A DNA stretch of 64,000 nucleotides from Nitrospirota bacterium. Lineage in GTDB: Bacteria > Nitrospirota > Nitrospiria > JACQCE01. Of this stretch, positions 3,488 through 38,125 are shown piece by piece. Under the pieces are notes generated by a model that was given only the letters and a program-made list of their open reading frames with translations, did no database searches and had not been told where the DNA came from. The stretch covers positions 11,419 through 75,418 of the forward strand of contig JACQCE010000062.1 in assembly GCA_016201765.1 (NCBI GenBank). The letters run 5' to 3'. Each line of letters opens with the position of its first letter. Positions within the stretch are counted from its first letter, which is position 1. The position numbers and the translations under genes were made by a program.

Positions 3488-3934
3488 ATGGGACGCGGAC
3501 CGTCAGACCCGTTTCGGGATCTCTTGTCGCTGCAAGAGCGCATGAATCAGTTGTTCGAGGAGAGCGCCCGGCGGAGCGGACTGCGACCGCACGTTGATGA
3601 ATGGGCCCCGCTGGTCGACATTCTGGACACCGATGACGCCATTATTTTGACCGCGGAAGTCCCGGGACTGGAGATCGGCGACATTACCCTTGAAGTGACC
3701 AATCACTATCTGACACTCCGCGGCGAACGTCTCTTCCCGCACAGCGACGGCAACGTCCACTACCACCAGCTGGAACGCGCATACGGAAAATTTGAACGGC
3801 TGTTCCATCTGCCCGAGGAAGTCGATCAGGGCCGGATCAACGCGACGCTGCGCGACGGCGTGCTGGAAATCGCGCTGCCCAAGCAACCGTCCCAACGCGC
3901 CTACACGATCCCCGTGCAGTCGCCGGAACCGTAG
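3488..3934 (+). CDS. small heat shock protein, Hsp20/alpha-crystallin family
   Basis: Alpha-crystallin domain motifs (VDILDTDDAIILTAEVPGL...GVLEIALPK). 148 aa. RBS GGGGATGAGG precedes the ATG. Confidence 0.85.
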   Translation: MGRGPSDPFRDLLSLQERMNQLFEESARRSGLRPHVDEWAPLVDILDTDDAIILTAEVPGLEIGDITLEVTNHYLTLRGERLFPHSDGNVHYHQLERAYGKFERLFHLPEEVDQGRINATLRDGVLEIALPKQPSQRAYTIPVQSPEP

Positions 3935-3961
3935 CCGCATCGCCGCAATCCAACCGGCACC

Positions 3962-6610
3962 ATGCGCCCCGACCAGCTCACCGTCAAAGCCCAGGAAGCA
4001 CTGCAGAGCGCCCAACAGACCGCCGAGCGCCGGGGGCATCAACAACTTGACGTCGAGCATCTTCTTCTGGCGCTCGTCCAGCAGCGTGACGGCCTGATCC
4101 CTCCCCTGCTCAAGAAGTTGGGCGTTGTTCCGGAATCGCTCGCCGCCCAATTGGAACAGTCACTTGAGCGCGTTCCCGGTGTCTCCGGCGCAGCCGCACC
4201 ATTGTCGGCGGCCCCCCGGTTGACGACCCTCTTCAGCCAGGCGGAGCGCGAAGCGGATCAGCTCAAGGATGACTACATCAGCACCGAACACCTGCTGCTG
4301 GCGGCGATGGAGAGCGGCGGAGCGGCGGACGCGCTGTTGAAGGAACAGGGCGTGACGAGGGACCGGCTGCTCAAAACACTGGCGGAGCTGCGCGGCTCGC
4401 AACGGGTGACCGATCAGAATCCGGAAGACAAGTACCAGGCGCTGGAACGGTACGGCCGGGACCTGACGGCGCTCGCCCGCCGGGGCAAACTCGATCCGGT
4501 CATTGGACGCGATGAAGAAATCCGCCGGGTCATTCAAGTCCTCTCCCGCCGGACGAAGAACAATCCGGTTCTCATCGGCGAGCCCGGCGTGGGGAAAACC
4601 GCCATCGCGGAGGGGCTGGCACAACGGGTGGTGGCCGGCGACGTGCCGGAAGGGCTCAAAGACCGGCGCGTGGTCGCGCTCGACATGGGCGCGCTGCTGG
4701 CCGGCGCCAAGTTCCGCGGCGAATTCGAAGAACGGTTCAAGGCCGTCATCAAGGAGGTCGTCGATTCGCAGGGGCAGGTGATCCTTTTCATCGACGAACT
4801 CCACACGCTGATCGGCGCGGGGGCCGCCGAAGGCGCCATCGACGCCTCCAACATGATCAAACCGGCCCTGGCGCGCGGCGAACTCCGCTGCGTGGGCGCC
4901 ACGACGCTGAACGAATACCGGCTGCACATCGAAAAGGACGCCGCCCTCGAACGGCGCTTCCAGCCCGTGCTGGTGAAGGAGCCCGACGTCGAGGAGACGA
5001 TCTCGATCCTCCGCGGGCTGAAGGAGCGGTATGAAGTCCACCACGGCGTGCGCATTCACGACGCCGCGCTGATCGCGGCCGCCACGCTGTCCCATCGCTA
5101 CATCTCCGACCGGTTCCTGCCCGACAAGGCCATCGATCTCATTGATGAAGCCGCCGCCAAGCTCCGGATGGAAATCGACAGCATGCCGTCGGAGTTGGAC
5201 GAAATCGAACGGCGCATCCGTCAATTGGAAATCGAGCGGCAGGCGATGACCAAGGAAACCGCGGCCTACGCCAAGGAACGGCTCGCCAAACTGGCCCAGG
5301 AACTGGGCGATCTGCAGGAGCGCTCCACACGGCTGAAGCTGCAATGGCAGCGGGAAAAAGAGGCCATCCAGGCCATTCGTGAACTGAAAAGCCGGATCGA
5401 ACAGACCAAAACCGCGGCGGAGCGGGCCGAGCGGGAGGCGGATCTGGCCAAGGCCGCCGAATTGCGCTACGGCCGCCTGACGGAGCTGGCCAAGGAATTG
5501 GAGATGAAAAATCGCCACCTGCAGGAGTTGCAAAAGGACCAGCGCCTGTTGAAGGAGGAGGTGGACGCCGAGGATATCGCGAAGATCGTCTCCAAATGGA
5601 CGGGCGTGCAGGTCTCGCGGTTGCTGGAAGGCGATCTGCAGAAGCTCATTCACATGGAAGAGCGGTTAAAAGCCCGGGTCGTGGGACAGGACGAGGCCGT
5701 CTCGGCGGTCTCCACCGCGGTCCGCAGGGCCCGGGCCGGGCTGCAGGATCCAAACCGGCCGCTGGGCTCATTCCTCTTTCTCGGCCCGACCGGCGTGGGC
5801 AAGACCGAACTGGCCCGCGCGCTGGCCGAATTTCTCTTCGATCATGAGCAGGCGATGATCCGGATTGACATGTCCGAATACATGGAGAAGCACGCGGTGG
5901 CGCGGCTCATCGGCTCCCCGCCGGGCTACGTGGGATTCGAAGAAGGGGGCCAGCTCACCGAAGCCGTGCGCCGCAAGCCCTACTCGGTGATTCTGTTCGA
6001 TGAGATCGAAAAAGCCCACCCGGACGTCTTTAATCTACTGCTGCAAGTCCTGGATGACGGCCGGCTGACCGACAGCCACGGCCGGACGGTCAACTTCAAG
6101 AACACCGTCATCATCATGACGTCGAACATCGCCAGCCAGGACATCCAGGAGCTGTCGGGCCGCGACGAGGCCGCGCTGCGCGCCAAGGTCATGGCGGCGC
6201 TGCGGGTCAACTTCCGCCCGGAGTTTCTCAACCGGATCGATGACATGATCATCTTCCACACGCTGGCGCCCGAGCAACTCCGCGCCATTGTCGAGATCCA
6301 GCTCCAGCGCGTCCGCAAGCAACTGGAGGAGAAACAGATCCGCCTGCAGTTGACCGACGCCGCCAAGGACGTGCTGGCGCGCGAAGGGTACGATCCGGTC
6401 TTCGGCGCCAGACCGCTCAAACGGGTCATTCAACGCGACCTGCTCAATCCCCTCTCCATCCGCCTGCTGGACGGCACGGTCAAGGAGGGCGACACCGTCT
6501 CGATAGACGTGAAGAACGGGGCGCTGCAGTTCATCTCCGGCGCCTCGCCCGCGTCACCGTCCCGCACATCGCCGCGAACCGCGCGCACATCGGCCCAGAC
6601 ATCGGATTGA
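3962..6610 (+). CDS. clpB: ATP-dependent chaperone ClpB
   Basis: Two AAA+ modules with Walker A GEPGVGKT and GPTGVGKT, a long coiled-coil middle domain, and an N-terminal Clp_N repeat. 882 aa. Only 27 nt downstream of hsp20. Confidence 0.95.
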
Positions 6611-6620
6611 CACGCACGCC

Positions 6621-6660
6621 GCGCCTGTGCTAATCACTGAACAGGCGCGAGCCGTTTTGC
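6621..6660 (+). terminator. putative hairpin terminator after clpB
   Basis: Stem GCGCCTGT / ACAGGCGC with a 12-nt loop, followed by a weak T-run (gagccgttttg). Confidence 0.3.
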
Positions 6661-6760
6661 AGATTTCATCCGTCATTCGATCGCAGGAACGCGACTTCTC
6701 GCACCGGCAAGACACGACACATCACAACCGTCACGCACCAATTCCCATCGCCACGACGCC

Positions 6761-7399
6761 ATGGCCACACTTCATATTATCCTGATCAGTGATGATCATG
6801 CGTTGATCCAGGGCGTGCGCGACCGTTTTGGTCATGCGGCCAAGGTCACCGTCCTGCACCGGTTGAAGCACCGCCTGCCCAAAACGACACCGCAGGAAGG
6901 ATCCGTTCTGTTTCTGATCGAAACATTGCACGCATCCGCACCCAGGCTGGCGAAATTGCTCCGCGCGGCTCACGGCGGGACCCCACCCTACATCGTCATC
7001 GGGACGGCCGCTCAATTGATCCGGGCCTGTGACCGGTTGCGATCGCTGCCGGCTGACGGCGGCCAGGAGGCCCTGGGGATGCCCATCGGCGCGTTAAATG
7101 GCGCACATGGGAATGGATCAGGCGGAAACGCCGCGGAGAAATTCTTTCACTCAAACGAGTTAGATTTGTCGCTTGGCGATTTTATGGAACGGAAATTTCA
7201 TGAATTTGTCAGAAAAATCAAACTCAGCGGCGGCAAAAATCTCTTTCAACTGCTGCGCCACGAATTTGAAAAACCCCTGATCACGCTCACGTTGAAGGAA
7301 ACCAAACATAATCAGGTGCAAGCCGCTGAATTACTGGGCATGAACCGCAACACACTCAGAAAAAAAATCAAAGAACTGAAAATTCCGGTCAAACGATAA
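6761..7399 (+). CDS. Fis-family HTH domain protein (atypical receiver-like N-terminus)
   Basis: C-terminal Fis/NtrC-type HTH (QVQAAELLGMNRNTLRKKIKELKI). N-terminus ILISDDHALIQGV resembles a receiver-domain start. Confidence 0.5.
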   Translation: MATLHIILISDDHALIQGVRDRFGHAAKVTVLHRLKHRLPKTTPQEGSVLFLIETLHASAPRLAKLLRAAHGGTPPYIVIGTAAQLIRACDRLRSLPADGGQEALGMPIGALNGAHGNGSGGNAAEKFFHSNELDLSLGDFMERKFHEFVRKIKLSGGKNLFQLLRHEFEKPLITLTLKETKHNQVQAAELLGMNRNTLRKKIKELKIPVKR

Positions 7400-7409
7400 C
7401 TCTTTTCTC

Positions 7410-7438
7410 TTGACTTCACCCAAACCGGCTGCTATCCT
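7410..7438 (+). promoter_or_regulatory. sigma70-like promoter TTGACT-N17-TATCCT upstream of HU
   Basis: Hexamers at 7410-7415 and 7433-7438. Confidence 0.4.
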
Positions 7439-7524
7439 ACGGCGGTCTTTCCGGCAATTACCGACGATGTAAACTCCGGTATTCATACAACGCCACACGA
7501 TTTTTATTGTCAAAGGATGCCCCC

Positions 7525-7797
7525 ATGACAAAAGCCGAATTAGTCAAACGCATTGCTTCTTCCGCCTCCATTCCCGATGTCACCGCCGCCAAGGCGCTCA
7601 CCGCCACGCTCGAAGGCATCACCGGGGCGCTCAAGCGCGGACAAAAAGTGGCACTGGTCGGTTTTGGCACGTTTTCCGTGGCCAAACGGCAGGCTAGGAA
7701 CGGGCGCAACCCCAGAACAGGCCAATCGATCAACATTCCGGCCGCCCGCGTCCCCCGTTTCAGCCCTGGCAAAGACCTCAAAAGCGCCATCCGGTAG
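7525..7797 (+). CDS. DNA-binding protein HU/IHF family
   Basis: MTKAELVKRIA...GFGTFSVAKRQARNGRNPRTGQSINIPAARVPRFSPGK is the classic HU beta-arm signature. ATG at 7525 is preceded by AAGGA. The ORF-track start at 7507 is a TTG. Confidence 0.85.
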   Translation: MTKAELVKRIASSASIPDVTAAKALTATLEGITGALKRGQKVALVGFGTFSVAKRQARNGRNPRTGQSINIPAARVPRFSPGKDLKSAIR

Positions 7798-7862
7798 CTT
7801 TTTTCTCTTCCGGTCGGGCCTGCAGCAGCCCGCCTCCAGCCCCGTCGTAAGCCGTGCCTTGC

Positions 7863-7892
7863 TTGACAAGCGGAAGAACTTTCGGCTAGGAT
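7863..7892 (+). promoter_or_regulatory. sigma70-like promoter TTGACA-N17-TAGGAT
   Basis: Hexamers at 7863-7868 and 7887-7892. It would drive the about 250-nt structured leader and tRNA-Val. Confidence 0.35.
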
Positions 7893-8150
7893 TTCGGCGA
7901 CATCCAACAGGTTGAAATGCTTCATTGTTGGATGCGCATGGCCGCTCAAAAAGCTCCAGCATCTGCCGATAGACAGCAGCGCGGCAGCCTGGGTTCTTTG
8001 AGCAGATCGGGCAGCGTCAATGCACAATCTGCTCAAAAAGCCCCGGATGCGAGGCCGCAGGGAGCGAAGCAACCGGAGTGTACTGTGTCGTACATGAGGA
8101 TTGCTGAGCGACCGAGCACGACGCAGGCGGGGATTTTTCAGCAGATTGTC

Positions 8151-8225
8151 AGGCGCGTAGCTCAGGGGTAGAGCGCTACCTTGACACGGTAGAGGTCGGC
8201 GGTTCGAGACCGCCCGTGCCTACCA
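8151..8225 (+). tRNA. tRNA-Val (anticodon GAC), CCA encoded
   Basis: Cloverleaf by eye. Acceptor AGGCGCG/CGTGCCT. D-arm AGCTCAGGGGTAGAGC. Anticodon stem CTACC/GGTAG with loop TTGACAC. T-arm GGCGG-TTCGAGA-CCGCC. Discriminator A plus CCA. Confidence 0.9.
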
Positions 8226-8396
8226 GGTTTCGTTTACGGCACTGCCCGCAGTACCAGGGCATCACATGGAGGAAGAGTCAGCGCACAGACCGTTCAGGCG
8301 CTTCGAAGGCGCGCTTGAGGCATTCAGCCGGCAGCCCGACAACGCCCCCGTCTCACGCAGCCTCTCAGTACTCGACTCATCGTGCGATCGTCCATC

Positions 8397-10385
8397 ATGT
8401 CATCAACCCGCCAGGGCTCATCAGATCACGCCCAGGATCAAATCAGCATCACGCTCAACGACCACGGGGCGACCCAGACGCTGACCTGCCCCCGGGGGAT
8501 CACGGGCACCGACCTCCTCTCCCGCGCCGCCGGAAAAACCGGGACGCCATCCGCCCCATTTGCCCCCTTTGCCATGAAAGTCAACGGCGAGTTGAAGGAT
8601 CTGCCCACACCATTGATACAGAACGCCACGGTGGAATGGCTGACGTTCGACTCCCCGGAGGGCAAGGAAGTCTACCGTCACAGTTCGGCCCATCTGCTGG
8701 CCCAGGCCGTCAAACGCCTGTTTCCCGGGGCCAAGCTGGCCATCGGCCCGCCGATCGAAGAGGGCTTCTACTACGACATCGACTACGAGCGCCCCTTCAC
8801 GCCGGACGATCTCGCCAAACTGGAGGCGGCCATCAATGATGTGATTCAGGCCGACCTGCCCATCACGCGGCACGAACTGCCCAGCGCCAAAGCGGTGGAA
8901 TTCTTCACCCAACGGCAGGAACCCTACAAGGTGGAGTTGATCCGGGATTTTCAGGTGCCGACGGTCAGCTACTATGAGCAGGGTGATTTTATCGACCTGT
9001 GCGAAGGCCCTCACCTGCCCAGCACCGGCCGGATGGGCGCCATCAAACTCCTCTCGGTGGCCGGCGCCTACTGGCGGGGCGACGAAAAGAAGCCGATGCT
9101 GCAGCGGATCTACGGCACCTCCTTCCCCACGGCGGACGCGCTGCAGGCGCATCTGACCAGGCTTGAGCAGCTCAAACAGCGCGATCACCGCAAGCTGGGG
9201 CGCGAACTGGACCTGTTCAGCATCCAGGAGACGATCGGGCCGGGGCTGATCCTCTGGCACCCGAAGGGCGCGGCAATCCGGCAGCAAATAGAAGCCTTCT
9301 GGAAGCGGCTGCACGAGGAGCACGGCTATCAATTCGTCTACACCCCGCACGTCGCCCGACTCGATTTGTGGAAGACGAGCGGCCACGTGGACTTTTACCG
9401 CGAGAACATGTTCCCGCCGATGGAGATCGAAGGGGCCGATTACGAATTGAAGCCGATGAACTGCCCGTTCCATCTGCTGATCTATCAGTCCCATCTGCGC
9501 AGCTACCGGGACCTGCCGATCCGTTTTGCCGAGCTGGGCACGGTCTATCGGTTCGAACGGTCCGGCGTGCTGCACGGCCTGCTGCGGGTGCGCGGCTTCA
9601 CCCAGGATGACGCGCACATCTTCTGCCGGCCCGACCAGGTGGAGGAGGAGATCAGCCGCGTGCTCGAATTGACGACCACGCTGCTCGGCGCGTTTGGTTT
9701 CCACGACTACGACATTTATCTCTCGACCAGGCCGGAGCACTACGTCGGGACGCTGGAGCACTGGGAAGCGGCCACCTCCGCCCTCTCGACCGCGTTGACC
9801 CGGCGGAGACTGGCCTATCAGATCGACCCCGGCGAAGGCGTCTTCTACGGCCCCAAAATCGACATCAAGGTCAAGGACCTGTTCGGCCGGGCGTGGCAAT
9901 GCGCCACGGTGCAGGTTGATTTCAATCTCCCCGAGCGGTTCACGCTGGCCTACCGGGGCGAGGACAGCCGGGAACACGCGCCGATCATGATCCACCGCGC
10001 GCTCATGGGCTCGCTGGAGCGCTTTTTCGGCATTCTGATCGAGCACTACGGCGGCGCCTTCCCCACCTGGCTGGCCCCCGTGCAGGCCATGGTCATCCCC
10101 ATCAGCGAAGCGCAGGCCGCCTACGCCGAGTCGATCGCCGAGCGACTCCGGGCCCGGCAGATCCGGGTTGAGATAGACCGGCGGAATGAGAAAATGGGGT
10201 TGAAGATTCGCGAGGCGCAACTGCAAAAAATTCCCTATATGATTGTGGTCGGCGGCCGGGAGCAGGAACAACAGACCGTCTCGCTCCGTTTACGCAGCGG
10301 CGAACAGATCGCCGCCTTGTCCGTCGATGCGTTGCTCGACCGCCTCTCACGCGAGATCGCGGAACGCGGACCGTCGACCGCCTGA
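8397..10385 (+). CDS. thrS: threonine--tRNA ligase
   Basis: TGS and second additional domains, class II core motifs (HRALMGSLERF, FRPEF-like), anticodon-binding C-terminus. About 660 aa. Start at ATG 8397 is preferred over GTG 8382. Confidence 0.9.
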   Translation: MSSTRQGSSDHAQDQISITLNDHGATQTLTCPRGITGTDLLSRAAGKTGTPSAPFAPFAMKVNGELKDLPTPLIQNATVEWLTFDSPEGKEVYRHSSAHLLAQAVKRLFPGAKLAIGPPIEEGFYYDIDYERPFTPDDLAKLEAAINDVIQADLPITRHELPSAKAVEFFTQRQEPYKVELIRDFQVPTVSYYEQGDFIDLCEGPHLPSTGRMGAIKLLSVAGAYWRGDEKKPMLQRIYGTSFPTADALQAHLTRLEQLKQRDHRKLGRELDLFSIQETIGPGLILWHPKGAAIRQQIEAFWKRLHEEHGYQFVYTPHVARLDLWKTSGHVDFYRENMFPPMEIEGADYELKPMNCPFHLLIYQSHLRSYRDLPIRFAELGTVYRFERSGVLHGLLRVRGFTQDDAHIFCRPDQVEEEISRVLELTTTLLGAFGFHDYDIYLSTRPEHYVGTLEHWEAATSALSTALTRRRLAYQIDPGEGVFYGPKIDIKVKDLFGRAWQCATVQVDFNLPERFTLAYRGEDSREHAPIMIHRALMGSLERFFGILIEHYGGAFPTWLAPVQAMVIPISEAQAAYAESIAERLRARQIRVEIDRRNEKMGLKIREAQLQKIPYMIVVGGREQEQQTVSLRLRSGEQIAALSVDALLDRLSREIAERGPSTA

Positions 10386-10414
10386 CCCCATCCCTCACAC
10401 GAAAGGAGCCGCGT

Positions 10415-11074
10415 ATCGCCACAAAACCACGAGTCAACAGGGAGATCAAGACCGACAAAATCCGCGTGATCAGCTCGAAGAACGAGCAATTGGGCGTCCT
10501 GCTCGTTCCCGAGGCGTTGCGCCTGGCGGAAGCGGAGGGGCTTGATCTGGTCGAAGTTGCGCCCACGGCCGCGCCGCCGGTCTGCCGTATCATGGATTAC
10601 GGCAAATACAAGTATGAGCAAACCAAGAAACAGCACGCGGCCAAGCTCCACCAACGCGGCACCCAGCTCAAGGAGGTGAAATTCCGCCCCTTCACGAGCC
10701 AGCATGACGTGGATTACAAGCTCCGCCATGCCATCGACTTTCTGGCCGACGGCCACAAGGTCAAGCTGACCGTCATGTTTCGGGGACGGGAGCTCGCGCA
10801 CCAGGAGGCGGGGCACGCGCTCCTTGACCGGCTGAAGACCGCGCTGGCGGATGTCTGCACGCCGGACCATCCGGCCCGGACGGAAGGACGGAATATGATG
10901 ATCATCGTGTCGCCGAAGGCGCAGGCCGTCGGCAAGCGCAAGACGGCGGCAAAACCCAAAAAAGCGGCGGCATCAGGCGCGGTGAAAAAATCGCCGACGC
11001 CGGCCGAGGCACCCGCAGCCGTCGCACCCGCGCCACCCGCGGGTCCGGCGAGCGAAACGACAAAGGACGCATAA
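10415..11074 (+). CDS. infC: translation initiation factor IF-3, probable non-canonical AUC start
   Basis: Strong similarity to the IF-3 N- and C-domains (PPVCRIMDYGKYKYEQ, KEVKFRP, VKLTVMFRGRE). The conserved N-terminal residues (NREIKTDKIRVI) lie upstream of the first ATG at 10466, in frame. ATC at 10415 lies 6 nt after a GGAG sequence. Confidence 0.75.
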   Translation: MATKPRVNREIKTDKIRVISSKNEQLGVLLVPEALRLAEAEGLDLVEVAPTAAPPVCRIMDYGKYKYEQTKKQHAAKLHQRGTQLKEVKFRPFTSQHDVDYKLRHAIDFLADGHKVKLTVMFRGRELAHQEAGHALLDRLKTALADVCTPDHPARTEGRNMMIIVSPKAQAVGKRKTAAKPKKAAASGAVKKSPTPAEAPAAVAPAPPAGPASETTKDA

Positions 11075-11283
11075 TGGCACGCACCAAACTGAAAACACAC
11101 CGGGGGGCGGCAAAACGCTTTCGAATCTCAGGCACGGGGAAGGTCGTCAGCACCCCGGCCGGCCGCCGCCATCTCATGACGGACAAGCGGCGGAACCGCA
11201 AGCGGTCGCTCCGGGGCAATGAGCCGATTTCGGCGGCCAATCAATCGGCGATCCACAAACTCCTGCCGTACGGGGTCAGATAA
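11074..11283 (+). CDS. rpmI: 50S ribosomal protein L35
   Basis: MARTKLKTHRGAAKRFRISGTGKV is the L35 signature. Overlaps the infC stop (TAATG). Confidence 0.9.
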   Translation: MARTKLKTHRGAAKRFRISGTGKVVSTPAGRRHLMTDKRRNRKRSLRGNEPISAANQSAIHKLLPYGVR

Positions 11284-11430: not shown

Positions 11431-11823
11431 ATGCCACGAGCTAAAGGCGGGCCGAAAACCCGTGTGCGCAGACGAAAACGGCTGAAACTGGCCAAAGGGT
11501 ATTACGGCGCCAAGAGCAAACTGTTTCGAACTGCCACCGAGCAGGTCGATAAAGGACGCCAATACGCCTATCGCGACCGGCGGGCCCGCAAACGGACGTT
11601 CCGGAGCCTCTGGATTGCCCGGATCAACGCCGCCCTCGCGCCGGAAGGGCTCTCCTACAGCCGGTTCATCGCCGGGCTGAAAACGGCGGGCATTGGTTTG
11701 GATCGCAAGAGCCTGGCGCAACTGGCCGCCGACGATCCCTCCGCCTTCTCGGCGATCGTCAGCCGCGTGAAGACGGTCCTGCCGGCCGGCGGGAAGTCCG
11801 CGCCGCTGGCCGCAGCCGGTTAA
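11431..11823 (+). CDS. rplT: 50S ribosomal protein L20
   Basis: [20 protein letters not shown]...[24 protein letters not shown] is the L20 signature. About 12-aa C-terminal extension relative to the E. coli protein. Confidence 0.9.
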
Positions 11824-13489
11824 GATCCAGCTCCCACGCCACGCAGGGCATCGTAATCTTCCACCGCTCCAATACCGCGGGGTGGAGTTCGCCGATCCAT
11901 CCCGCGGCCTGTTCGCCGATTCGAATCACGCCGACCCGGCCCTCCAAAAACGACGGATGAACCGCCGGTTCGAGGCGGTAGGCCGCGCCGGCCTCCAACA
12001 TCAACAGCTCCAACGAGGAATGCAGTTCTGAAAAAGCCGCCGACGGCGCGGCGAGCATCGCCGCCAGGCGCAGATCGGTCCGACTCTTCCGGCTGTTGCC
12101 GCCCTCTTCAATGACCGTCGCCACCTCCCCGACCTCGAACATTTTGTGGGGATAGAAGGCGTGGCCTGAGGCCGCCTCAACCCGCAAGAGTGAAGGCAGC
12201 AACCATGGCCGCAGCACGGCATACTGCAATGACAGCGGATTCTCCAGTTCCACCATCGGCGGCTCCGCGCCCATCTTCTCCGCCAGATCGCTGTGCGAGG
12301 AGAGAATATTGGTCATCACTTCCTGAAACCCCAGCCCGATCATCCACCGGCGGACCTGTTCCTCCAGCCGCGTCTCCGGCGACAGCCCGCCCACGGTGAA
12401 GGTGGCCGGCAGTTCCGGCGTCAGCCGGTCGTAGCCGCGCTGCATGGCAATGTCCTCGATGAGATCGACCGGGTGCATCAGATCGCCCCGATAGGGCGGC
12501 GGCGTCGCCGTCCAGCGGCCGGAGGCGGCCGTGACACGGTGGCCGGCCTGCCGCAGCGCGCGCGCAATCTCGCCATCCGCAAGCCGCTCTCCCAGCACCG
12601 CGTCCACCTCGGCGCGCCGGACCGTCATCGATCTGGAAATGTCATGCGGCATCACCACCCGACGGCCGTAGGGCGTCGTCCTGGGATAGACGATCTCGAC
12701 CGGTTCGATCGTCGCGCCCCGGTCGGCCAGATTCTGGGCGAGAAGATTTACCAGCAGACTGACCAGGCGAAGATCGGTCCCCGTGACTTCAATCAATACA
12801 TGTTTATCTCCCGGTCGCACCTCGCCCACTTCCCGGCTGTTGACGATCGGCGGCAGGGAGAGCGGCCGCCCCTTGGCATCGGTGAGCAACGGCACCAGGG
12901 AGGAGCCGCGGAGCAAATGGCCGTACTCGCGTCCCTTCGGATGTTCATCCAGGATCGCTTCAAGCGTCAGCGGCTGGTCCATCCCCAGCGGCGTGAAGAC
13001 CGCCGCCGTCGGCTCGACCGCCGTGTACGTGAGCGGAAACGTCAACGGGTCGAGCCGGTAGTAGCCGATCGAGAGCGCCCGCCGCTTCTGGCCGAAAATT
13101 TCCGCCAGTTTTTCCTGCGTCTGGATGAGCTGATCGAGAAGCGATTGATTGATGTTGCTGTTCCGCGCAACACAGGCGCCCAGAAACGGCCGGATGGGCG
13201 TCACCGGTGCAAGCACTCGAATCTGTCGGAGGACCCGCCTCCCCATCCGACCCGGCAACCCGCGTACCGGTTTCCCGTCATGCAGCCGGATCTGCCTGGC
13301 GATCCCCTCCGCGCACCACCAGTCGGGCCGGTTGCTGTCGTTCAGTTCGATCTTGAGTTCGTCGCCGTCGGCGCCGACCTCCTTGAGCTCCCCTTTCACC
13401 AGCGGCAGCAGCCCCTCGAGGACATCAATCGGAATCGCCCGGCCTGCCAGCCGGGCCAGTTCACGCCGTCGGATCGTAATCGTCGGCAT
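11759..13489 (-). CDS. pheT: phenylalanine--tRNA ligase beta subunit, archaeal/eukaryal type
   Basis: 576 aa (bacterial PheT is about 800 aa). N-terminus [16 protein letters not shown] resembles archaeal PheT starts. B3/4 and B5-like core. Start overlaps the pheS stop (ATGA). Confidence 0.8.
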
Positions 13490-13492
13490 CGG

Positions 13493-15097
13493 TCAGGCGC
13501 CCGGGCCCGTCTCCCCCGTCTCAATCGACACCGACGGAGGGCGAAGCGTGCGAAGGAATTCCAGATCGGTGGCGAAGAGATCACGGATGTCGTGCAGCCC
13601 CATCGCCACCATCGCCATCCGGTCCAGGCCCAATCCCCACGCGATCACCGGCACCGTCACCCCCATGGGGGTGGTGACCTCGGGCCGGAAAAGGCCGGCG
13701 CCGCCCAGCTCCATCCAGCCCAGCTTGGGGTGGCGGACGTGCAGCTCGACCGACGGTTCGGTGAAGGGGAAATAGGCCGGAAGGAATTTGATCTCGTCCG
13801 CCCGGGCCAGTTCAACGGCAAACAGCTTCAGCAGGCCGAGCAGCGTCCGGAAGGTGATCGTCGGATCGAGCACGATGCCTTCTATTTGGAAAAAATCGGG
13901 CGCGTGCGTGGCGTCGACCTGATCGTACCTGAAGCAACGCGTGATCGAAAAATATTTGCCCGGCACGCGGGGGCCGCCGGCCAGCGTCCGGGCCGAGACC
14001 GCCGTGCCCTGGCTGCGCAGAATCATCTGTCGGGCGCGGGCCCGATCGAAGGCGTACCGCCAGCCGGTCGATGCCCCGCCCCCGCCCCGCTCGTGCGTCA
14101 CCGCCACCCGTTCCAAGAGCGCCGGATCGATGTCATCCGCCGGCGCCAATCCCTTGGCGAAATAGACGTCGTGAATGTCGCGGGCGGGGTGAAACTGGGG
14201 CATGAAAAGCGCATCCATGTTCCAGAACTCGCTTTCCACCAGCGGCCCGCGCATCTCCTGAAAGCCCATCGACACCAGCTTGGCCTGCACCTCGCCCAGA
14301 AACTGCCGATAGGGATGGACGCGGCCGGCGCCGATCCGGGGCGGCTTCAAATCGATGTGGAACTTTCGAAAGCGCTTCCCCTTCCACGACCCGTCCTTGA
14401 GCATCTCCGGCGTCAGCTGGGAGACTTCCCCCGCGGCCGACTCGGCGGGGAGGCGCTGGACTAACTCGCGCCCCAGGTCGGTCAGGGCAAACCGTTTTGA
14501 CACCTTTTCATGAAGCTTGATAATTCCTCTCGTTTTCCATCTCTTCTCAATAAAATCTTCAAGAATAGTTTTATGATTTTCCGTGAGTGTTTCCTCACCA
14601 ACCGGAGTGGCGGAAGCGGCCAGCAGCCCAATGAGACCGGTCATGCCCTGTTCGCCGATCACTTGTGACGGCAGGCCGACGCCCGCCAACTCCAGCACCC
14701 CTCCCTGCCCGATCCGGGCCACGCCATGCTGCTTGAGGTTGCCGACCGCCGTGCTCACCTCCAACTGGTCCAATCCCAGCCGCTCGCGCAGGTCCGGGAT
14801 CAACAGACGCGTGCCGGCCTGAAGCGCCTGAACGATCCGCTGTTCCGGAATCAGTTCCGTGGCATAGCGCCGCCCCAGTTCGGTCAACGAGACGAACTTC
14901 GATGTCCGATCCTGTTCAACGCACAGGACTTCCTTCGACAGCAGCCAGCCAAATGCCATCGAGAGGCGCGATTCATCCAGACCGGTTCGTTGGGCCAGTT
15001 GATGATCCCAGGCCGCCGGCTCATCGCGAAACACGGCCAGGACCGTCCGCTCCAGCGGGTGCAGTCCGAACAGCAGTTGCTCGATGGATTGGGACAC
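13493..15097 (-). CDS. pheS: phenylalanine--tRNA ligase alpha subunit, archaeal/eukaryal type (long N-terminal winged-helix extension)
   Basis: 534 aa versus about 340 aa for bacterial PheS. Class II core with motif 3 GLGLDRMAMVAMGLHDIRDLF. About 200-aa N-terminal extension. Confidence 0.8.
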   Translation of the reverse strand: MSQSIEQLLFGLHPLERTVLAVFRDEPAAWDHQLAQRTGLDESRLSMAFGWLLSKEVLCVEQDRTSKFVSLTELGRRYATELIPEQRIVQALQAGTRLLIPDLRERLGLDQLEVSTAVGNLKQHGVARIGQGGVLELAGVGLPSQVIGEQGMTGLIGLLAASATPVGEETLTENHKTILEDFIEKRWKTRGIIKLHEKVSKRFALTDLGRELVQRLPAESAAGEVSQLTPEMLKDGSWKGKRFRKFHIDLKPPRIGAGRVHPYRQFLGEVQAKLVSMGFQEMRGPLVESEFWNMDALFMPQFHPARDIHDVYFAKGLAPADDIDPALLERVAVTHERGGGGASTGWRYAFDRARARQMILRSQGTAVSARTLAGGPRVPGKYFSITRCFRYDQVDATHAPDFFQIEGIVLDPTITFRTLLGLLKLFAVELARADEIKFLPAYFPFTEPSVELHVRHPKLGWMELGGAGLFRPEVTTPMGVTVPVIAWGLGLDRMAMVAMGLHDIRDLFATDLEFLRTLRPPSVSIETGETGPGA

Positions 15098-18366: not shown

Positions 18367-18933
18367 TCACAACGCGCCGGCTGATTCCTCCCGTTCATCA
18401 TGATCATGATCGCACGTGTGATCATGCACGTGCGTCGTCCGCATCCGCTTGCGATGGCGGCGCAGAAACATGTTCCGTTTCAAACTGCTGATCCGATCGA
18501 TCAACAACCGGCCGTTGAGATGATCAGTTTCATGCTGAAAGAGCCGGGCCAGCAACCCCTCCCCCTCCAGCGTCACCACCTTCCTCGTGCGATCCATCCC
18601 CTGGATCTTCACCCAGTTGGCCCGGCTGACCACCACCCGGTAATCGGGCACGCTCAAGCAACCCTCATCATCCGACTGGGCGCCGCGTCGCTCCAGAATC
18701 ACCGGATTGATGAGCGCCTGGGGTTGCCGCGCGCCGTCCGTGTGGCCGATGTCGTAGACGAACAACCGCAGCGGCACGCCGATCTGCGGCGCGGCCAGAC
18801 CGATGCCCGGCGCGTCATACATCGTCTCGATCATATCCTCAATGAGCCGGTCGATCTCGGCGTCCACGCGCTCGACCGGCCTGGCCGGTTGCCGAAGCAC
18901 CGCCTCGGGAAACTCAACAATGGGTCGTATCAT
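18367..18933 (-). CDS. def: peptide deformylase with His/Asp-rich C-terminal tail
   Basis: GIGLAAPQIG, EGCLSVP and HETDHLNG metal-binding motifs. C-terminal tail HVHDHTCDHDHDE. Confidence 0.9.
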   Translation of the reverse strand: MIRPIVEFPEAVLRQPARPVERVDAEIDRLIEDMIETMYDAPGIGLAAPQIGVPLRLFVYDIGHTDGARQPQALINPVILERRGAQSDDEGCLSVPDYRVVVSRANWVKIQGMDRTRKVVTLEGEGLLARLFQHETDHLNGRLLIDRISSLKRNMFLRRHRKRMRTTHVHDHTCDHDHDEREESAGAL

Positions 18934-19030
18934 GTGACTGGTGGCTTGATGTTTGCACTCATCCCACACCGCGCAGCGTCGACATTCTGACACGCTTCCC
19001 GGCCAAAATCAACCGACTCAGATACAAGAG

Positions 19031-19157: not shown

Positions 19158-19187
19158 TTGACACCATCAAGATCGCTCTGCTAGCAT
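19158..19187 (+). promoter_or_regulatory. sigma70-like promoter TTGACA-N18-TAGCAT for the split tRNA-fMet
   Basis: -10 hexamer ends 6 nt before tRNA position 1 (19193). Confidence 0.45.
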
Positions 19188-19226
19188 GCGGTCGCGGGGT
19201 GGAGCAGCCTGGTAGCTCGTCGGGCT

Positions 19227-19890
19227 CAATTCCGCGAGAACAACGTGGAAACCAAACTCAAGGGAGATATCGCAGAGCAGGCGGCCACTCTTCAAGCCCT
19301 GAAGCGTGGATGGGGAGTGCTCAAGCCCGTGGGGGACCGGTTGCCGTATGACCTGGTCCTCGATGTGGCGGGAGTCCTCGTCAAAGCGCAGGTCAAGTCT
19401 GCCTGGCTTGATGAGTCTTCTCAGAATCATGTCATCGACAATCGTCGCACCAAAACGAACCGTCGCGTCATGATTCGAGAGACCTATCAGCCCGAGGATT
19501 TTGACTTTGCGCTGGCTTACCTGCCTGAGTTAGATCTGTTTTATGTCTTCCCGGTCGAGGTTTTCATTGGCTACGGCAGTGAAATCCATTTGGTCGAAGC
19601 CGACAAGCGGCAGCGGAAGCCCCGGTCTTCAGGCTATCGCAACGCTTGGGAGTTGATCTCGCAATGGGCTGCGCAGAAGGAAACTTCTGTGCGATATCCT
19701 GTCAAATTCGGGGAAGCCGGTGATTCGGTAATCCCGAGCCAAGCGCTGGCAGCCGCAAGGCCGCTGGCGAAGGTGTAGAGACTTAATGGCAGGCACCCTC
19801 CGGTTCGGCCGAGGGTGAAGAGAAAGTCCAGACTGCAAACTGGTCCATCGTAGCGAACGCGGGCCAGGCAGCGAAAGCTGTAGCGGTACG
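19227..19890 (+). mobile_element. 664-bp intron in the anticodon loop of tRNA-fMet (probable group I intron), carrying a homing-endonuclease-like ORF
   Basis: The boundary 5' exon ...U | intron ... G | C 3' exon is the only placement consistent with the group I rule (U before the 5' splice site, terminal G of the intron). The 3' portion contains a GNRA hairpin (CAGCGAAAGCUG). The Synechocystis tRNA-fMet group I intron encoding I-Ssp6803I is a precedent. Confidence 0.65.
19245..19778 (+). CDS. intron-encoded PD-(D/E)XK-fold nuclease (putative homing endonuclease, I-Ssp6803I-like)
   Basis: 177-aa ORF entirely inside the intron. GTG start. Motif E(QAA)...PYDLVLDVAGVLVKAQVK fits a restriction-endonuclease-like D...(E/Q)xK core. 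Confidence 0.6.
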   Translation: METKLKGDIAEQAATLQALKRGWGVLKPVGDRLPYDLVLDVAGVLVKAQVKSAWLDESSQNHVIDNRRTKTNRRVMIRETYQPEDFDFALAYLPELDLFYVFPVEVFIGYGSEIHLVEADKRQRKPRSSGYRNAWELISQWAAQKETSVRYPVKFGEAGDSVIPSQALAAARPLAKV

Positions 19891-19934
19891 CATAACCCGA
19901 AGGTCAGAGGTTCAAATCCTCTCCCCGCAACAAT

Positions 19935-23400: not shown

Positions 23401-23661
23401 GGGGCCATTCCAGCGGCTTGAGGGGGCGAAGCCTGCGGGGACGCACGACAGGCGGTTCGCTCCCATGCCCGCATTAGTTTGTCAGCTTCTTCCGCGTTTT
23501 TTTCACTACACAAGAGGGCCAACGCACGTCTCAGGGCTGTGTCAAGGAGCTCTGATGGCTGGCGGCTTCTTTTCTCCTCAGCCTTCCCGTGGCGATCCGG
23601 GCGCCGACGGGGCCCAGCCCGAACCACACGCACGTACATTCCACCAACGCTGGAGGTTCCC

Positions 23662-25842
23662 ATGATGCCCTCACTCGTCCGCCATTGGCCCGTGTCGTCG
23701 CACAATCTGAAAAAAATCGCGTTCCTGCTGCTGCTCGGCGCGTCGGTTGCCGTCATCAGCATCCTCGTGCCGTCCAATGTCAGCCCCACGGTGTCGCCCT
23801 TGCACGGACAGACCCAGGAACTCGCGGGTTGGATGATCCAGGCCGTGGCCCAGTATGATCGCGAACGGCACACCCTGCTCAAACGGCAGATCGGGCAACT
23901 CGCCCGACAGATCAACCAATTCACGCAGAACCGGACCGGCCGTTTGCAGGAACAGTTCGGCCAGGCGATCGTGCAGACCCATCAGCGGATTCGCGCCGAA
24001 TGGATGCACCTGCGGGCCGAACGGGCGGCCACGGCACGAGCGTTGGATCAGATCATCGACACCCGATCGGCGCAATGGCAGGAGCAGTTGGGCAGGACCA
24101 TCGTGACCACCGCGCAGCGCGTTCCGGAGGGCGGCGCCGCCTTTCAGGCGGCGCTGCAGAAGAACGTGGCGCACCTGAGGCGGGTCGCGGAGCGAGCCGC
24201 CGCCCGGCTGAGCGATCAACTGGACGAATTGACACGCCAGCAGGCTGATTTTCCAAGTCTCATCGCCCTGCTCTACAAGGAGGCAATCGCCTCCGCCGGC
24301 CGATCCGCCCGGATGTTCGACGAAGGGCACCTGGCATGGGCGACCCGGGTCCATGCCGAGCTGGACCAGCAGGTCAAGTGGCAACGGCCGTCCGACGCCT
24401 ATGCGCAACTGGAGCTGGCGGCCAGATCGGCCTTGACCGGACCGGCCGGTGCCGGCGGCTTTATCGAATTCGGCCTCCCGGCGCTCGCGGGGCTGGTCTT
24501 CGTCATGGCGTGGTGCGGCACAACCCTGCGGAAGGACACGGACGCCGCCATGAACCGGAAAATCATCGGCCCCACGAAACCGCTCCTCCGGGAGCACGAT
24601 CGATCGGACGCCGAGGCGGACACCATGCGGCAACCCGTTCTCCTGTTTAGCTGGCCCAAAGAGGTCGTCTTCGGCGTCAACGTCTCGGCGACCATCGGGC
24701 GGTACGCCGCCAAGGATCGCGTTCACAAAGCGCTGCTGATCACCGACCGCAACCTCCACGACCGCGGCCTGCTGGAACCGCTGAAGGCGTCATGCTCCGG
24801 CGCCGGGATCGGGTGGACCGTCTACGACGAGGTCGCGCACGAGGCGCCCGACACGAACATCAGCAAGGCCTGCGAGACGTGCCGTCACACGGCGGCGGAT
24901 TTGATCGTCGCGGTCGGCGGCGGCAGCGTGATCGACACGGCGAAGGCGGTCGGGATTCTCGTCACCAACGGCGGCCGGCTCCAGGACTATGAGGGCCTGG
25001 ACAAGGTCCCCTCCCCGCCGCCGCATTTCTACGCCGTGCCGACCACCGCCGGTTGCGGCAGCGAAACCAGCCAATTCTGCGTCGCGCTGGATACCGCGCA
25101 CAAGCGGAAACTGGAGATCATCAGCCGCCGCGTCATCCCGCAGATGATCTTCATCGACCCGGCGTTGATGCTCACCATGTCCCCGGAGCTGACGGCCGGC
25201 AGCGGGATCGATGCGCTGACGAACGCGATCGAAGCCTATTGCTCCACCTGGGCCAGCCCGCTGACCGACACCCTGGCCTTGCACGCCATTCGGCTGATCG
25301 CGGGCGCGTTGCGCGTGGCCGTGTCCAACGGCGCCAACCTCGAAGCGCGCCGGCAAATGGCGGTGGCGGCGTTCGAAGCCGGCCTGGCGTTCAACAACGC
25401 CCAGTGCGGGGCGGCCCACGCCTTGGGCCACCCGATCGCCGGGCTGTTGAACGTGCCGGAGCGGCTGAGCGAAGGCATCCTCCTGCCGCATGTTATGCGC
25501 TACAATCTGCGCGCGGGCATGGCCCCCCGTCTGGCGGAGGTGGCCGGCGCCCTGGGCGAGCGGGTGGAGGACCTCGACCCGCAGGCCGCGGCGGAACGGG
25601 CCGTCATCGCCGTGCAGTGGCTGTTGTCGGATATCGGACTCCCCGCCACCCTGGACAAGATCGGCGTGGCCAAGGAGGCCATCCCGGAACTGACCCGGCA
25701 GGCGGCGCAGGACACCTTTCTGCGGACAAACCCGCGCACGTTGCACGCGCAAGAGATCGAACACCTCTATCTCCGCGCCTTTGAGGAACAAGCATGGAGA
25801 GCCTACGCCTCAGTGAACCGATGGGATGAGACGGTGCACTGA
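23662..25842 (+). CDS. membrane-anchored fusion protein: N-terminal TM / about 270-aa helical domain / TM / C-terminal iron-containing alcohol dehydrogenase (Fe-ADH family), paralog A
   Basis: C-terminal about 390 aa with Fe-ADH motifs GGGSVIDTAKAVG, VPTTAGCGSETS, GIDALTNAIEAYCS, CGAAHALGHPIAG. Hydrophobic segments near the N-terminus and at GFIEFGLPALAGLVFVMAWCG. RBS GGAGG 5 nt before ATG 23662. Confidence 0.8.
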   Translation: MMPSLVRHWPVSSHNLKKIAFLLLLGASVAVISILVPSNVSPTVSPLHGQTQELAGWMIQAVAQYDRERHTLLKRQIGQLARQINQFTQNRTGRLQEQFGQAIVQTHQRIRAEWMHLRAERAATARALDQIIDTRSAQWQEQLGRTIVTTAQRVPEGGAAFQAALQKNVAHLRRVAERAAARLSDQLDELTRQQADFPSLIALLYKEAIASAGRSARMFDEGHLAWATRVHAELDQQVKWQRPSDAYAQLELAARSALTGPAGAGGFIEFGLPALAGLVFVMAWCGTTLRKDTDAAMNRKIIGPTKPLLREHDRSDAEADTMRQPVLLFSWPKEVVFGVNVSATIGRYAAKDRVHKALLITDRNLHDRGLLEPLKASCSGAGIGWTVYDEVAHEAPDTNISKACETCRHTAADLIVAVGGGSVIDTAKAVGILVTNGGRLQDYEGLDKVPSPPPHFYAVPTTAGCGSETSQFCVALDTAHKRKLEIISRRVIPQMIFIDPALMLTMSPELTAGSGIDALTNAIEAYCSTWASPLTDTLALHAIRLIAGALRVAVSNGANLEARRQMAVAAFEAGLAFNNAQCGAAHALGHPIAGLLNVPERLSEGILLPHVMRYNLRAGMAPRLAEVAGALGERVEDLDPQAAAERAVIAVQWLLSDIGLPATLDKIGVAKEAIPELTRQAAQDTFLRTNPRTLHAQEIEHLYLRAFEEQAWRAYASVNRWDETVH

Positions 25843-27627: not shown

Positions 27628-27972
27628 GTCGAGTATCAACAGTTGAAAAACGGGCCGTGGTGTTGTGTTGCGGCGCCCGGCTCGCAGCAGGATCATTTCC
27701 CCTCGTTTTATCTGCACTACTTCCAGCAACGGAAGGTTCAGTGTGGCCCGGAGCCGAAAGGATGCGCTCCGAAGGCTTGGCATTTTCTTTTTCCGCCCGT
27801 CTGTTGTTGAAGAATCACGCCTTTACAGGCTGGGATTCTTCGACATGAGTGGAGAAAGGCTCCTTGGTATCCGCTCGCTGACCCCGCCTTCAGAGGGCGG
27901 GGATTGCGCTCGCTATGCATGTTCGCCGCACATGCCCTCCGGGCGTGTGCACACCAACGGAGGTGCCGAGCC

Positions 27973-33554: not shown

Positions 33555-34388
33555 TTGCCACACCACCGCCTCGTTCGATCGCTTGTGCTGCTCTCGGCCG
33601 TCATCCTGCCCTCCCTGTTCGGCGGTCCGGCGGGCTGTCAGCGACCCGCCGCCGCCCCGGGCATGGTCTGGATCCCCGGAGGCCCCTTCACCATGGGCAC
33701 CGATGAGACGGACGCGGAAGGGCGGGCACTGGAGTTCGGCCTGACCAAGCCGTGGTTTGAAGACGAGCATCCCACGCATACGGTCAACCTGCCCGGCTTT
33801 TATCTGGACCGTAATGAAGTGACCAACGCCGATTTTGCCGCCTATGTGGCTGCCACCGGCGCAAGGGTCCCGGGAACCTGGAAAGCCGCCACCTATCCCG
33901 GCGGCGAGTCGAACATGCCGGTGGCCAGCGTGAACTGGTACCAGGCGAATGACTATTGCGCCTGGGCGAAGAAACGGCTGCCGACCGAGGCGGAATGGGA
34001 GAAGGCGGCCCGGGGCACCGACGGACGACTCTATCCCTGGGGCAACGACTTCTCGCTCGACAAGGCGAATCTCATGTCCGGCTCGGTGCAGCCGGTGGGC
34101 CTGTTTGCGCGCGAGCCGAGCCCCTACGGCGTGAACGATCTGGTCGGCAACGTCTGGGAATGGACGGCGGACTGGTATCTGCCCTATCCGGGATCGACCG
34201 CCGCCTCAAAAGATTTCGGCCAGAAATTCAAAGTGGTGCGCGGCAAGTCCTGGACCAAGGGCTTCGGCCATCAGGAGAAGGCGGAGGTGAGCCAGATCAT
34301 CGCCCATGAAGCGCGCGGCGGCTTTCGGCTCTATTTCGATCCGGTTTTCGGATTCAACGACCTGGGGGTCAGATGCGCAAAATCTTAA
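33555..34388 (+). CDS. periplasmic FGE/SUMF1-fold (formylglycine-generating-enzyme family) protein 1, lacks the catalytic Cys pair
   Basis: FGE-sulfatase domain motifs (WIPGG.FTMG, HTVNLPGFYLDRNEVTN, RLPTEAEWEKAARG, NVWEWTADWY, GFRCA). Signal peptide. No CxxxxC near the C-terminus. Confidence 0.7.
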   Translation: MPHHRLVRSLVLLSAVILPSLFGGPAGCQRPAAAPGMVWIPGGPFTMGTDETDAEGRALEFGLTKPWFEDEHPTHTVNLPGFYLDRNEVTNADFAAYVAATGARVPGTWKAATYPGGESNMPVASVNWYQANDYCAWAKKRLPTEAEWEKAARGTDGRLYPWGNDFSLDKANLMSGSVQPVGLFAREPSPYGVNDLVGNVWEWTADWYLPYPGSTAASKDFGQKFKVVRGKSWTKGFGHQEKAEVSQIIAHEARGGFRLYFDPVFGFNDLGVRCAKS

Positions 34389-36345: not shown

Positions 36346-36418
36346 TTCATCATTCTAAGTCTTTGTGGCCTTATTATCTCGGCCGGTGTTGATCCATGTA
36401 CACGTCAAGGAGGCTGGT

Positions 36419-38014: not shown

Positions 38015-38016
38015 AT

Positions 38017-38119
38017 AACGCCAAGGCGGTCATGCGCCACTACGCACGGGCATCCTACCGGTTGTTTTACTATCCGAACGACGGGCTGGAGGATCTGGGG
38101 TTCCGGTGCGTCAAACCGG
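38017..38119 (+). pseudogene. orphan duplicated 3' end of FGE-fold gene 3 (direct repeat copy 2)
   Basis: Encodes ...AKAVMRHYARASYRLFYYPNDGLEDLGFRCVKPV with no upstream gene body. Confidence 0.7.
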
Positions 38120-38125
38120 TATAGC

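Follow-up and report, generated by a model that had tools for sequence, protein, structure and literature searches.

The subject of this report is a pair of genes for the two subunits of phenylalanyl-tRNA synthetase (PheRS) on a contig of a Nitrospirota bacterium (JACQCE010000062.1), within a stretch of 64,000 nucleotides (nt) that we call the window and to which, at its full 64-kb length, all coordinates refer. Gene calls were taken from a list of the open reading frames (ORFs) of the window. The two genes lie on the minus strand:

13493..15097, minus strand: pheS, alpha (catalytic) subunit of an archaeal/eukaryal-type PheRS, 534 aa, GTG start
11759..13489, minus strand: pheT, beta (editing, tRNA-binding) subunit of the archaeal/eukaryal type, 576 aa

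Coordinates, lengths and orientation are as claimed in an earlier reading of this DNA (the original prediction in what follows) and agree with the ORF list, in which only 3 nt separate the stop of pheS from the start of pheT. The pair is convergent to a plus-strand cluster, thrS-infC-rpmI-rplT, an arrangement that the same reading had set against the co-directional bacterial order; in the genome of Escherichia coli K-12, checked as a reference, the order is thrS-infC-rpmI-rplT-pheM-pheS-pheT-ihfA, all on one strand. At their 3' ends, the reading frames of rplT and pheT share 65 nt (11759..11823). This overlap runs through the poorly conserved C-terminal tails of both RplT and PheT. Overlaps of the same two genes are also present in three of the related loci described below (56 nt in L001, 26 nt in L029 and 20 nt in L002), L001 and L002 being members of the window's own lineage.

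Both subunits are of the archaeal/eukaryal type, and here the NCBIfam hidden Markov models bore out what had been predicted. In PheS, residues 12-518 aligned to positions 4-491 of the 496-position profile NF003210 for a score of 555.1 bits (cut-off 350), and TIGR00468 gave 333.1 bits (cut-off 237.45). Against TIGR00471 pheT_arch, PheT reached 424.7 bits (cut-off 282.65), its residues 1-558 covering positions 1-549 of the 551 in the profile, and it failed the bacterial model TIGR00472 pheT_bact (126.1 bits, cut-off 402.65), the match to which was confined to the B5-B6/7 region (residues 283-563, profile positions 403-695).

In a sequence search of the PDB, the top chains for PheS were eukaryotic cytosolic alpha subunits (8S8B_A, 1.7e-70; 3L4G_A, 2.4e-65), whereas bacterial chains matched at about 1e-35 and over the core only. 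The class II core (Pfam PF01409, 273.5 bits) occupies residues 247-517 only. Against the PheS of E. coli, BLASTP gave 32% identity, again restricted to the core and with a 48-residue gap at about query residues 311-358. This segment aligned to the eukaryotic chains 8S8B_A and 9UDL_A with gaps of one residue at most, and it is therefore an insertion in the core specific to the archaeal/eukaryal enzymes. Two stretches that align to human and other eukaryotic chains, FRYDQVDATHAPDFFQIEG and GAGLFRPEV...GLGLDRMAM, we take to be class II motifs 2 and 3. The original prediction had described an N-terminal extension of about 200 aa in PheS. It is an extension relative to bacterial PheS, but not an addition to the protein family, since NF003210 covers residues 12-518 and the region is thus ordinary archaeal/eukaryal alpha architecture. 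Weak winged-helix matches were found at residues 19-82 and 86-133, and residues 32-94 aligned weakly to the N-terminus of 8S8B_A; judged by these matches, the N-terminus is the predicted winged-helix region typical of archaeal/eukaryal alpha subunits, in place of the bacterial coiled coil.

For PheT, the best PDB chain was the human cytosolic beta subunit (3L4G_B, 1.6e-61). Residues 1-353 aligned to the B1-B3/4-B5 fragment of Pyrococcus horikoshii (2CXI_A, 2.2e-61), and the beta subunit of Thermus thermophilus matched residues 295-555 only. Pairwise identity was 37% over the full length with a Thermococcus PheT and 26% with E. coli PheT, the latter over 311 C-terminal residues only; in tblastn, residues 1-400 and the final 100 residues of the E. 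coli protein found nothing. Pfam recognised B5 (288-353), CLM/B6-7 (359-556) and a weak B1 (1-73), and found neither tRNA_bind (B2) nor FDX-ACB (B8) in PheT, even at E<=10. PheT is short (576 aa, against about 800 aa in the bacterial type) because these two bacterial domains are missing, and its predicted domain set is B1, B3/4 (editing), B5 and B6/7.

The editing-pocket residues of P. horikoshii considered here are those reportedly described by Sasaki et al. 2006. In the 2CXI alignment, PheT keeps the equivalents of Gln126, Glu127, Arg137, Leu168, Leu202, Ser211, Asn217 and Thr236. The editing pocket is thus probably largely intact, with clearance of Tyr-tRNAPhe as the predicted function.

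Long shadow ORFs arise in high-GC genomes, and one of 723 aa lies on the strand opposite pheS-pheT. The GC content of the two minus-strand genes is 0.64-0.65, the same as that of the window, their GC at third codon positions (GC3) is 0.78-0.80, and orthologues of their products were found at 47-93% identity. The family scores far above the cut-offs, the GC3 and the hundreds of orthologues show that pheS and pheT are real genes and not themselves shadow ORFs. In a scan for promoters and terminators, terminators did not exceed the shuffled expectation, and no terminator-like site was found within the rplT/pheT overlap. No tRNA-Phe gene, sought for its identity elements, was found in the window or in the related loci.

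A protein search with PheT was made among 5.8 billion proteins, and the 120 best matches ran from 93% down to 49% identity; all the named organisms among them were Nitrospirota, Nitrospiria, Nitrospirales or Nitrospira. A scan with a PheT alignment over one genome per GTDB species gave at least 586 relatives, and the best 80 of them were analysed as loci (here numbered with an L). These 80 loci are Nitrospirota, bar one labelled 'Nitrospinota' that nests among them, and represent, among others, N. moscoviensis (closed genome, L065), Ca. Manganitrophus (L031, L058) and several metagenome-assembled genomes (MAGs) with closed chromosomes. Their identity to the window ranges from 47 to 79%, the closest being L001 (Nitrospiria bacterium SMAG_U15296) at 79%. 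The genes that surround pheS-pheT in the window, and that served for the comparison of these loci, are the following:

18367..18993, minus strand: def (peptide deformylase), first gene of its string; ORF list, kept position, Pep_deformylase match in L081
17318..18370, minus strand: fmt (methionyl-tRNA formyltransferase); ORF list, kept position, Formyl_trans_N/C in L081
15836..17311, minus strand: rsmB-like 16S rRNA methyltransferase; ORF list, position kept in relatives, Pfam NusB/Methyltr_RsmB-F in L081
15111..15791, minus strand: rpe (ribulose-phosphate 3-epimerase); ORF list, tblastn orthologues directly upstream of pheS in 54 Nitrospirota loci, Pfam Ribul_P_3_epim in L081
11431..11823, plus strand: rplT (L20), last gene of thrS-infC-rpmI-rplT; ORF list
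11074..11271, plus strand: rpmI (L35), 65 aa; translation, position kept in relatives
10415..11074, plus strand: infC (IF3), with a proposed ATC start at 10415; the ORF list starts at GTG 10466
8382..10385, plus strand: thrS (threonyl-tRNA synthetase); ORF list, kept position
8151..8225, plus strand: tRNA-Val(GAC), preceding thrS; tRNA scan

The rpe gene adjoins pheS, 13 nt upstream on the same strand; its start is probably internal to the listed ORF, which runs to 16151. From this tight packing, def-fmt-rsmB-rpe-pheS-pheT would probably be co-transcribed, with translational coupling between pheS and pheT.

Synteny was examined by tblastn of eleven window proteins against the 80 loci. The string def-fmt-rsmB-rpe-pheS-pheT facing rplT-rpmI-infC-thrS(-hup) is widely kept, including in N. 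moscoviensis and Ca. Manganitrophus. A convergent rplT was found at most 10 kb past pheT in 53 of the 71 informative loci, with a gap of -56 to 8223 nt (median 120); in most Nitrospira it measures 50-130 nt, and some members of this genus have insertions of 1-8 kb between pheT and rplT. No rplT was present in 18 of the 80 loci, in each of which at least 2 kb could be seen downstream, and the remaining 9 were too short to judge. Of the 18 without rplT, fifteen belong to a second, lower-GC group of MAGs labelled 'Nitrospirota bacterium', in which the neighbours of pheS-pheT are entirely different. Beyond these loci, five more distant bacteria were compared:

Leptospirillia MAG (L081): def-fmt-M48 peptidase-rsmB-rpe-pheS-pheT, rplT cluster not downstream
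Spirochaetales MAG (L082): valS-x-pheS-pheT
Planctomycetes (L083): pheS-pheT with unrelated neighbours
Latescibacterota (L084): pheS-pheT with unrelated neighbours
Armatimonadetes MAG (L085), 3920..9695: pheS and pheT split by three genes

The archaeal-type pair is thus common to Nitrospiria, to the second Nitrospirota MAG group and to Leptospirillia, and the comparison of the loci indicates that the rpe link is common to two classes of Nitrospirota while the rplT junction is confined to Nitrospiria. Thermococcus, Aenigmatarchaeota and Bathyarchaeales likewise have pheS next to pheT and in this order, so that the pair could move as a two-gene cassette. The three genes that intervene in the Armatimonadetes MAG are a 5'-nucleotidase/metallophosphatase, a DUF5674 protein and one unknown; every other locus examined, bacterial or archaeal, has pheS and pheT side by side.

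For the phylogeny of the beta subunit, 1.84 billion cluster representatives were scanned in full with HMMER for relatives of PheT. At a threshold of E<=1e-30 there were 964 of them, with a smooth gradient of identity from 51% to 32%. A neighbour-joining tree of 157 PheT sequences placed the window and all the Nitrospirota loci in one clade, within a star-like group of representatives of 40-49% identity. A profile of the nearest neighbours outside Nitrospiria retrieved bacterial names only (Ca. Latescibacterota, Planctomycetota, Leptospirillia, Armatimonadetes, Spirochaetia/Spirochaetales, Nitrospirota and plain 'bacterium'), some of them on contigs of 3-8 Mb. A profile of the distant representatives retrieved archaeal names only, namely Bathyarchaeia, Thermococcus, Aenigmatarchaeota, Woesearchaeota and Parvarchaeota. 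In a second neighbour-joining tree, of 50 PheT sequences with 100 bootstraps, the split between archaea and the bacterial 'archaeal-type' sequences had 100% support, and so did a clade of Nitrospirota that included Leptospirillia and the second MAG group. Spirochaetales, Latescibacterota, Planctomycetota and Armatimonadota fell outside this clade, as its nearest relatives. The neighbour-joining tree of the PheS encoded beside those pheT genes was congruent, separating the bacteria from three archaea with 99-100%; the window PheS is 57% identical to that of Leptospirillia, 45-52% to those of other bacterial phyla and 39-40% to archaeal ones. Both subunits are therefore placed away from the bacterial type, as anticipated, and the parallel with spirochaetes that the original prediction had drawn proved apt, since the Spirochaetales sequences fall in the same bacterial sub-clade.

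One eukaryotic entry turned up among these sequences. In the annelid Paralvinella palmiformis, a 'hypothetical protein' of 1739 aa (KAK2141494.1; P0511, in the cluster of P0158) clusters at 90% identity or more with a bacterial archaeal-type PheT, and P0158 belongs to the cluster of representatives nearest to the named Spirochaetales sequences. This is probably a bacterial sequence, from a symbiont or a contaminant, fused in a eukaryotic assembly.

Taken together, we consider it very probable that the pair is the housekeeping PheRS of a Nitrospiria bacterium, in its archaeal/eukaryal (alpha-beta)2 form, and that it was vertically inherited from an ancestor of Nitrospirota. Its universal conservation among core translation genes argues for the housekeeping role. 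The tblastn queries run against the window and 88 loci, namely the window proteins, PheS and PheT of E. coli and the bacterial-specific N- and C-terminal parts of these, found archaeal-type genes only. The pair would be the sole PheRS of the cell. The bacterial 'archaeal-type' clade is distinct from the archaea sampled, which points to an old transfer of the adjacent pheS-pheT pair from archaea to bacteria, its direction and number being our deduction; it would have been followed by spread or differential retention among the bacterial phyla. In this sequence of events, the tail-to-tail position beside rplT would be an ancestral feature of the class Nitrospiria. The window-like GC of both genes fits an old acquisition that has since been ameliorated. 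A recent transfer can be ruled out by the absence of a GC anomaly and by the phylum-wide occurrence of the trait. The lateral acquisition that had been proposed for this genome accordingly stands as far as the archaeal type is concerned, but it is not particular to this genome: it is phylum-wide, and the closest relatives of the pair are bacterial, not archaeal.

Several observations weigh against this interpretation. The Pfam model B3_4 was silent on PheT, even at E<=10, and two pocket residues of P. horikoshii, Arg223 and Asp234, are both Glu in PheT (2CXI alignment). The trees are neighbour-joining trees with Kimura distances, rooted at the midpoint or on an archaeal outgroup chosen arbitrarily; they contained few archaea (14 beta and 3 alpha subunits), no eukaryotes and no cultured Treponema, Borrelia or Spirochaeta, so that the monophyly of the bacterial copies may fail under maximum-likelihood. 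The affinity of spirochaete PheRS to Thermococcales (PMC3191353) was not reproduced in our limited neighbour-joining tree, and the single-clade picture is therefore uncertain. Finally, the search that found no second, bacterial-type pheST covered the 64-kb window and related loci that total about 1.4 Mb, with flanks of up to 10 kb, and not whole genomes.

A more far-reaching version is that one ancient acquisition of pheS-pheT stands behind all the bacterial 'archaeal-type' PheRS, in Nitrospirota, Spirochaetota, Planctomycetota, Latescibacterota, Armatimonadota and further lineages with 3-8 Mb genomes. The cassette would then have crossed between phyla, repeatedly ousting the native enzyme, and in the ancestor of Nitrospiria would have come to lie beside what was left of the native rplT-pheST operon. 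We hold this to be possible but doubtful. If true, it would revise the textbook picture of one transfer from Thermococcales to spirochaetes, and the type of PheRS would be a deep phylogenetic marker and, at the same time, a confounder for marker sets that contain pheS or pheT.

The original prediction had proposed a replacement of the bacterial enzyme at its native locus. In such a xenologous displacement in situ, an ancestral thrS-infC-rpmI-rplT-pheS-pheT would have received the archaeal-type cassette at or next to the native genes, inverted, after which the native pair would have been deleted. Gene displacement in situ within conserved operons was reportedly described by Omelchenko et al. 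in 2003 in Genome Biology, and the likeness to it is that a foreign isofunctional gene lies in the position expected of the native gene: archaeal-type pheS-pheT directly adjoin the 3' end of rplT, the point at which bacterial pheST usually begins, as in the E. coli order. This junction is old and conserved across Nitrospiria, given the median gap of 120 nt and the overlap in the window's lineage, and by our reasoning a chance placement beside one particular gene end among a few thousand genes is a priori unlikely. The conserved adjacency is thus suggestive of a replacement at the native locus.

However, sameness of operon and orientation is the defining feature of displacement in situ, and what is seen here is adjacency only: pheS-pheT lie on the strand opposite to rplT, in a slot and orientation other than those of the native pair, and therefore cannot use the transcription signals of the rplT operon. 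The pair is instead the tail of another tight string, def-fmt-rsmB-rpe-pheS-pheT, with spacings of 13 nt and 3 nt. The Leptospirillia MAG has the string from def to pheT with no rplT downstream, and the linkage to rpe is therefore at least as old as the adjacency to rplT; the second Nitrospirota group has neither rpe nor rplT as a neighbour, and in four other phyla pheS-pheT are not linked to rplT. Remnants of a bacterial pheS or pheT between pheT and rplT were not found in any locus, even in spacers of up to 8 kb. The neighbours are all translation genes, which tend to cluster regardless, and the conserved adjacency amounts to one ancestral event, noticed post hoc. The opposite strand, the place at the tail of the rpe string, the Leptospirillia locus and the lack of remnants leave replacement at the native locus undemonstrated, and we regard it as unlikely.

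The archaeal-type enzyme might also be an auxiliary paralogue, a second PheRS beside a bacterial one encoded elsewhere, serving for instance in inhibitor resistance or stress. Foreign duplicates of aminoacyl-tRNA synthetases that confer antibiotic resistance are generally known from other cases, and the search for a bacterial-type copy, which found none, extended over the window and some 1.4 Mb from related loci, with the rest of the genome outside it. Against this, none of the 80 best Nitrospirota loci, one per GTDB species, lacks the pair, which is conserved there at 47-79% identity; it is embedded among core translation genes, and its catalytic core matches the family models at full length; in spirochaetes, moreover, the archaeal form replaced the bacterial one (PMC3191353). 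An auxiliary role is accordingly very improbable.

Archaeal contamination or a chimeric assembly or bin, which the frequency of MAGs among the relatives might bring to mind, has a negligible probability and can be ruled out by composition and by synteny in closed genomes: the junctions on both sides are seen again in the cultured N. moscoviensis, whose genome is closed (L065), and in dozens of assemblies made independently, GC and GC3 of pheS and pheT equal those of the flanks, and pheT physically overlaps rplT.

With the pair taken as the inherited housekeeping PheRS, the nearest known counterpart is that of Spirochaeta, Treponema and Borrelia, for which a transfer of both subunits from archaea to bacteria has been described, with a placement next to Thermococcales and with sizes of 513-528 aa (alpha) and 514-573 aa (beta) (Andam and Gogarten, 2011; PMC3191353). 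The window shares with it the two-subunit archaeal/eukaryal architecture in a bacterium, the similar sizes (534 and 576 aa) and the single history of both subunits, besides the common sub-clade with Spirochaetales MAG sequences. It differs in that the Nitrospirota form their own clade with 100% support, with a beta subunit only 43-48% identical to that of Spirochaetales, and in its context, def-fmt-rsmB-rpe-pheS-pheT facing rplT as against valS-x-pheS-pheT in the Spirochaetales MAG. The archaeal and eukaryotic enzymes (2CXI, 3L4G, 8S8B) align collinearly with it over the full length, with the same domain set and most pocket residues, including the equivalent of Asn217. The identity to the archaeal enzymes is nevertheless 37-40%, the bacterial host must charge a bacterial tRNAPhe, the two Glu substitutions at R223 and D234 set the pocket apart, and the window PheT ends in a tail of about 20 aa that reaches into rplT. 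With the bacterial PheRS (E. coli pheST; T. thermophilus 1PYS/1B70) it has in common the reaction, the heterotetramer principle, a homologous core (32%) and B5-B6/7 region (26%) and the thrS-infC-rpmI-rplT chromosomal neighbourhood; unlike them, it has no B2, no B8 and no coiled-coil alpha N-terminus, its genes are on the strand opposite to rplT, and the window has room for neither a pheM leader nor ihfA.

The finding is not surprising in kind, because displacement of aminoacyl-tRNA synthetases between domains is well documented and the annotation is already correct: the NCBI and JGI pipelines name the Nitrospirota proteins as PheRS subunits. In the open-access library that was searched we found only the spirochaete case, and none for Nitrospirota, Planctomycetota, Latescibacterota or Armatimonadota, though they may have been published elsewhere. 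What is new here is the set of host phyla for the known archaeal-type bacterial PheRS; the trait itself is old and phylum-wide. The data suggest a far more extensive bacterial clade, of which the known spirochaete case would be a single tip. PheRS is essential and a drug target, and pheS and pheT serve as phylogenetic markers; its archaeal/eukaryal form is used by an entire phylum of nitrite oxidisers, comammox and manganese-oxidising bacteria, which matter in the environment, and by at least four other phyla. Where marker phylogenies or completeness estimates rely on the bacterial pheT model, these genomes will be overlooked or wrongly placed, inhibitors optimised for the bacterial PheRS may not act on these bacteria, and recognition of tRNAPhe must work without the bacterial B2 and B8.

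Among the neighbouring genes, infC deserves a comment. A perfect AAGGAG Shine-Dalgarno sequence (10403-10408) stands 6 nt before the ATC at 10415, and the in-frame translation upstream of the listed GTG (10466) reads as a typical IF3 N-terminus, I-ATKPRVNREIKTDKIRVI... The start of infC is thus probably the non-canonical ATC at 10415, judging by the sequence alone, and such a start fits the autoregulation of IF3 through a non-standard start codon. The start codon of E. coli infC is AUU.

Just beyond def, and divergent from def-fmt, lies an initiator tRNA-fMet (19193..19931, plus strand) with a C1xA72 mismatch and three G-C pairs in the anticodon stem. It is directly preceded by a promoter-like TTGACA-18 nt-TAGCAT with an upstream TG (19158..19187, plus strand). 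The anticodon loop is split by a 664-nt group I intron at about 19228..19891 (Rfam RF00028, 57.5 bits; ARAGORN intron mode), which contains an ORF of 177 aa (19245..19778) for a PD-(D/E)XK homing endonuclease of the I-Ssp6803I type (PF11645, 167 bits; PDB 2OST, 3e-67). Close homologues of this endonuclease are generally cyanobacterial (PMC3384342); the element sits in the same tRNA as its cyanobacterial counterpart, but its host here is a member of Nitrospirota. The tRNA-fMet is intronless in the closest relatives L001 and L002 and in N. moscoviensis (L065), which points to a recent mobile insertion, and a candidate intron of 329 nt is present in L042.

Farther along the window, two paralogues of iron-containing alcohol dehydrogenase (23479..25842 and 27904..30159, both on the plus strand) enclose the gene of an MFS (major facilitator superfamily) transporter. 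Their N-terminal parts of about 360-390 aa have no Pfam match; either they are novel domains, or the ORFs were called too long in this high-GC DNA. A low-GC stretch (0.515 as against about 0.62) carries a 549-aa Ala/Gln-rich repetitive ORF (36365..38014, plus strand). On either side (36200..36294 and 37906..38124) stands a copy of the 3' end of an FGE-sulfatase gene, with the peptide ...AKAVMRHYARASYRLFYYPNDGLEDLGFRCVKP occurring twice, and the stretch resembles an insertion within or next to a tandem array formed by three PF03781 genes (33555..36294).

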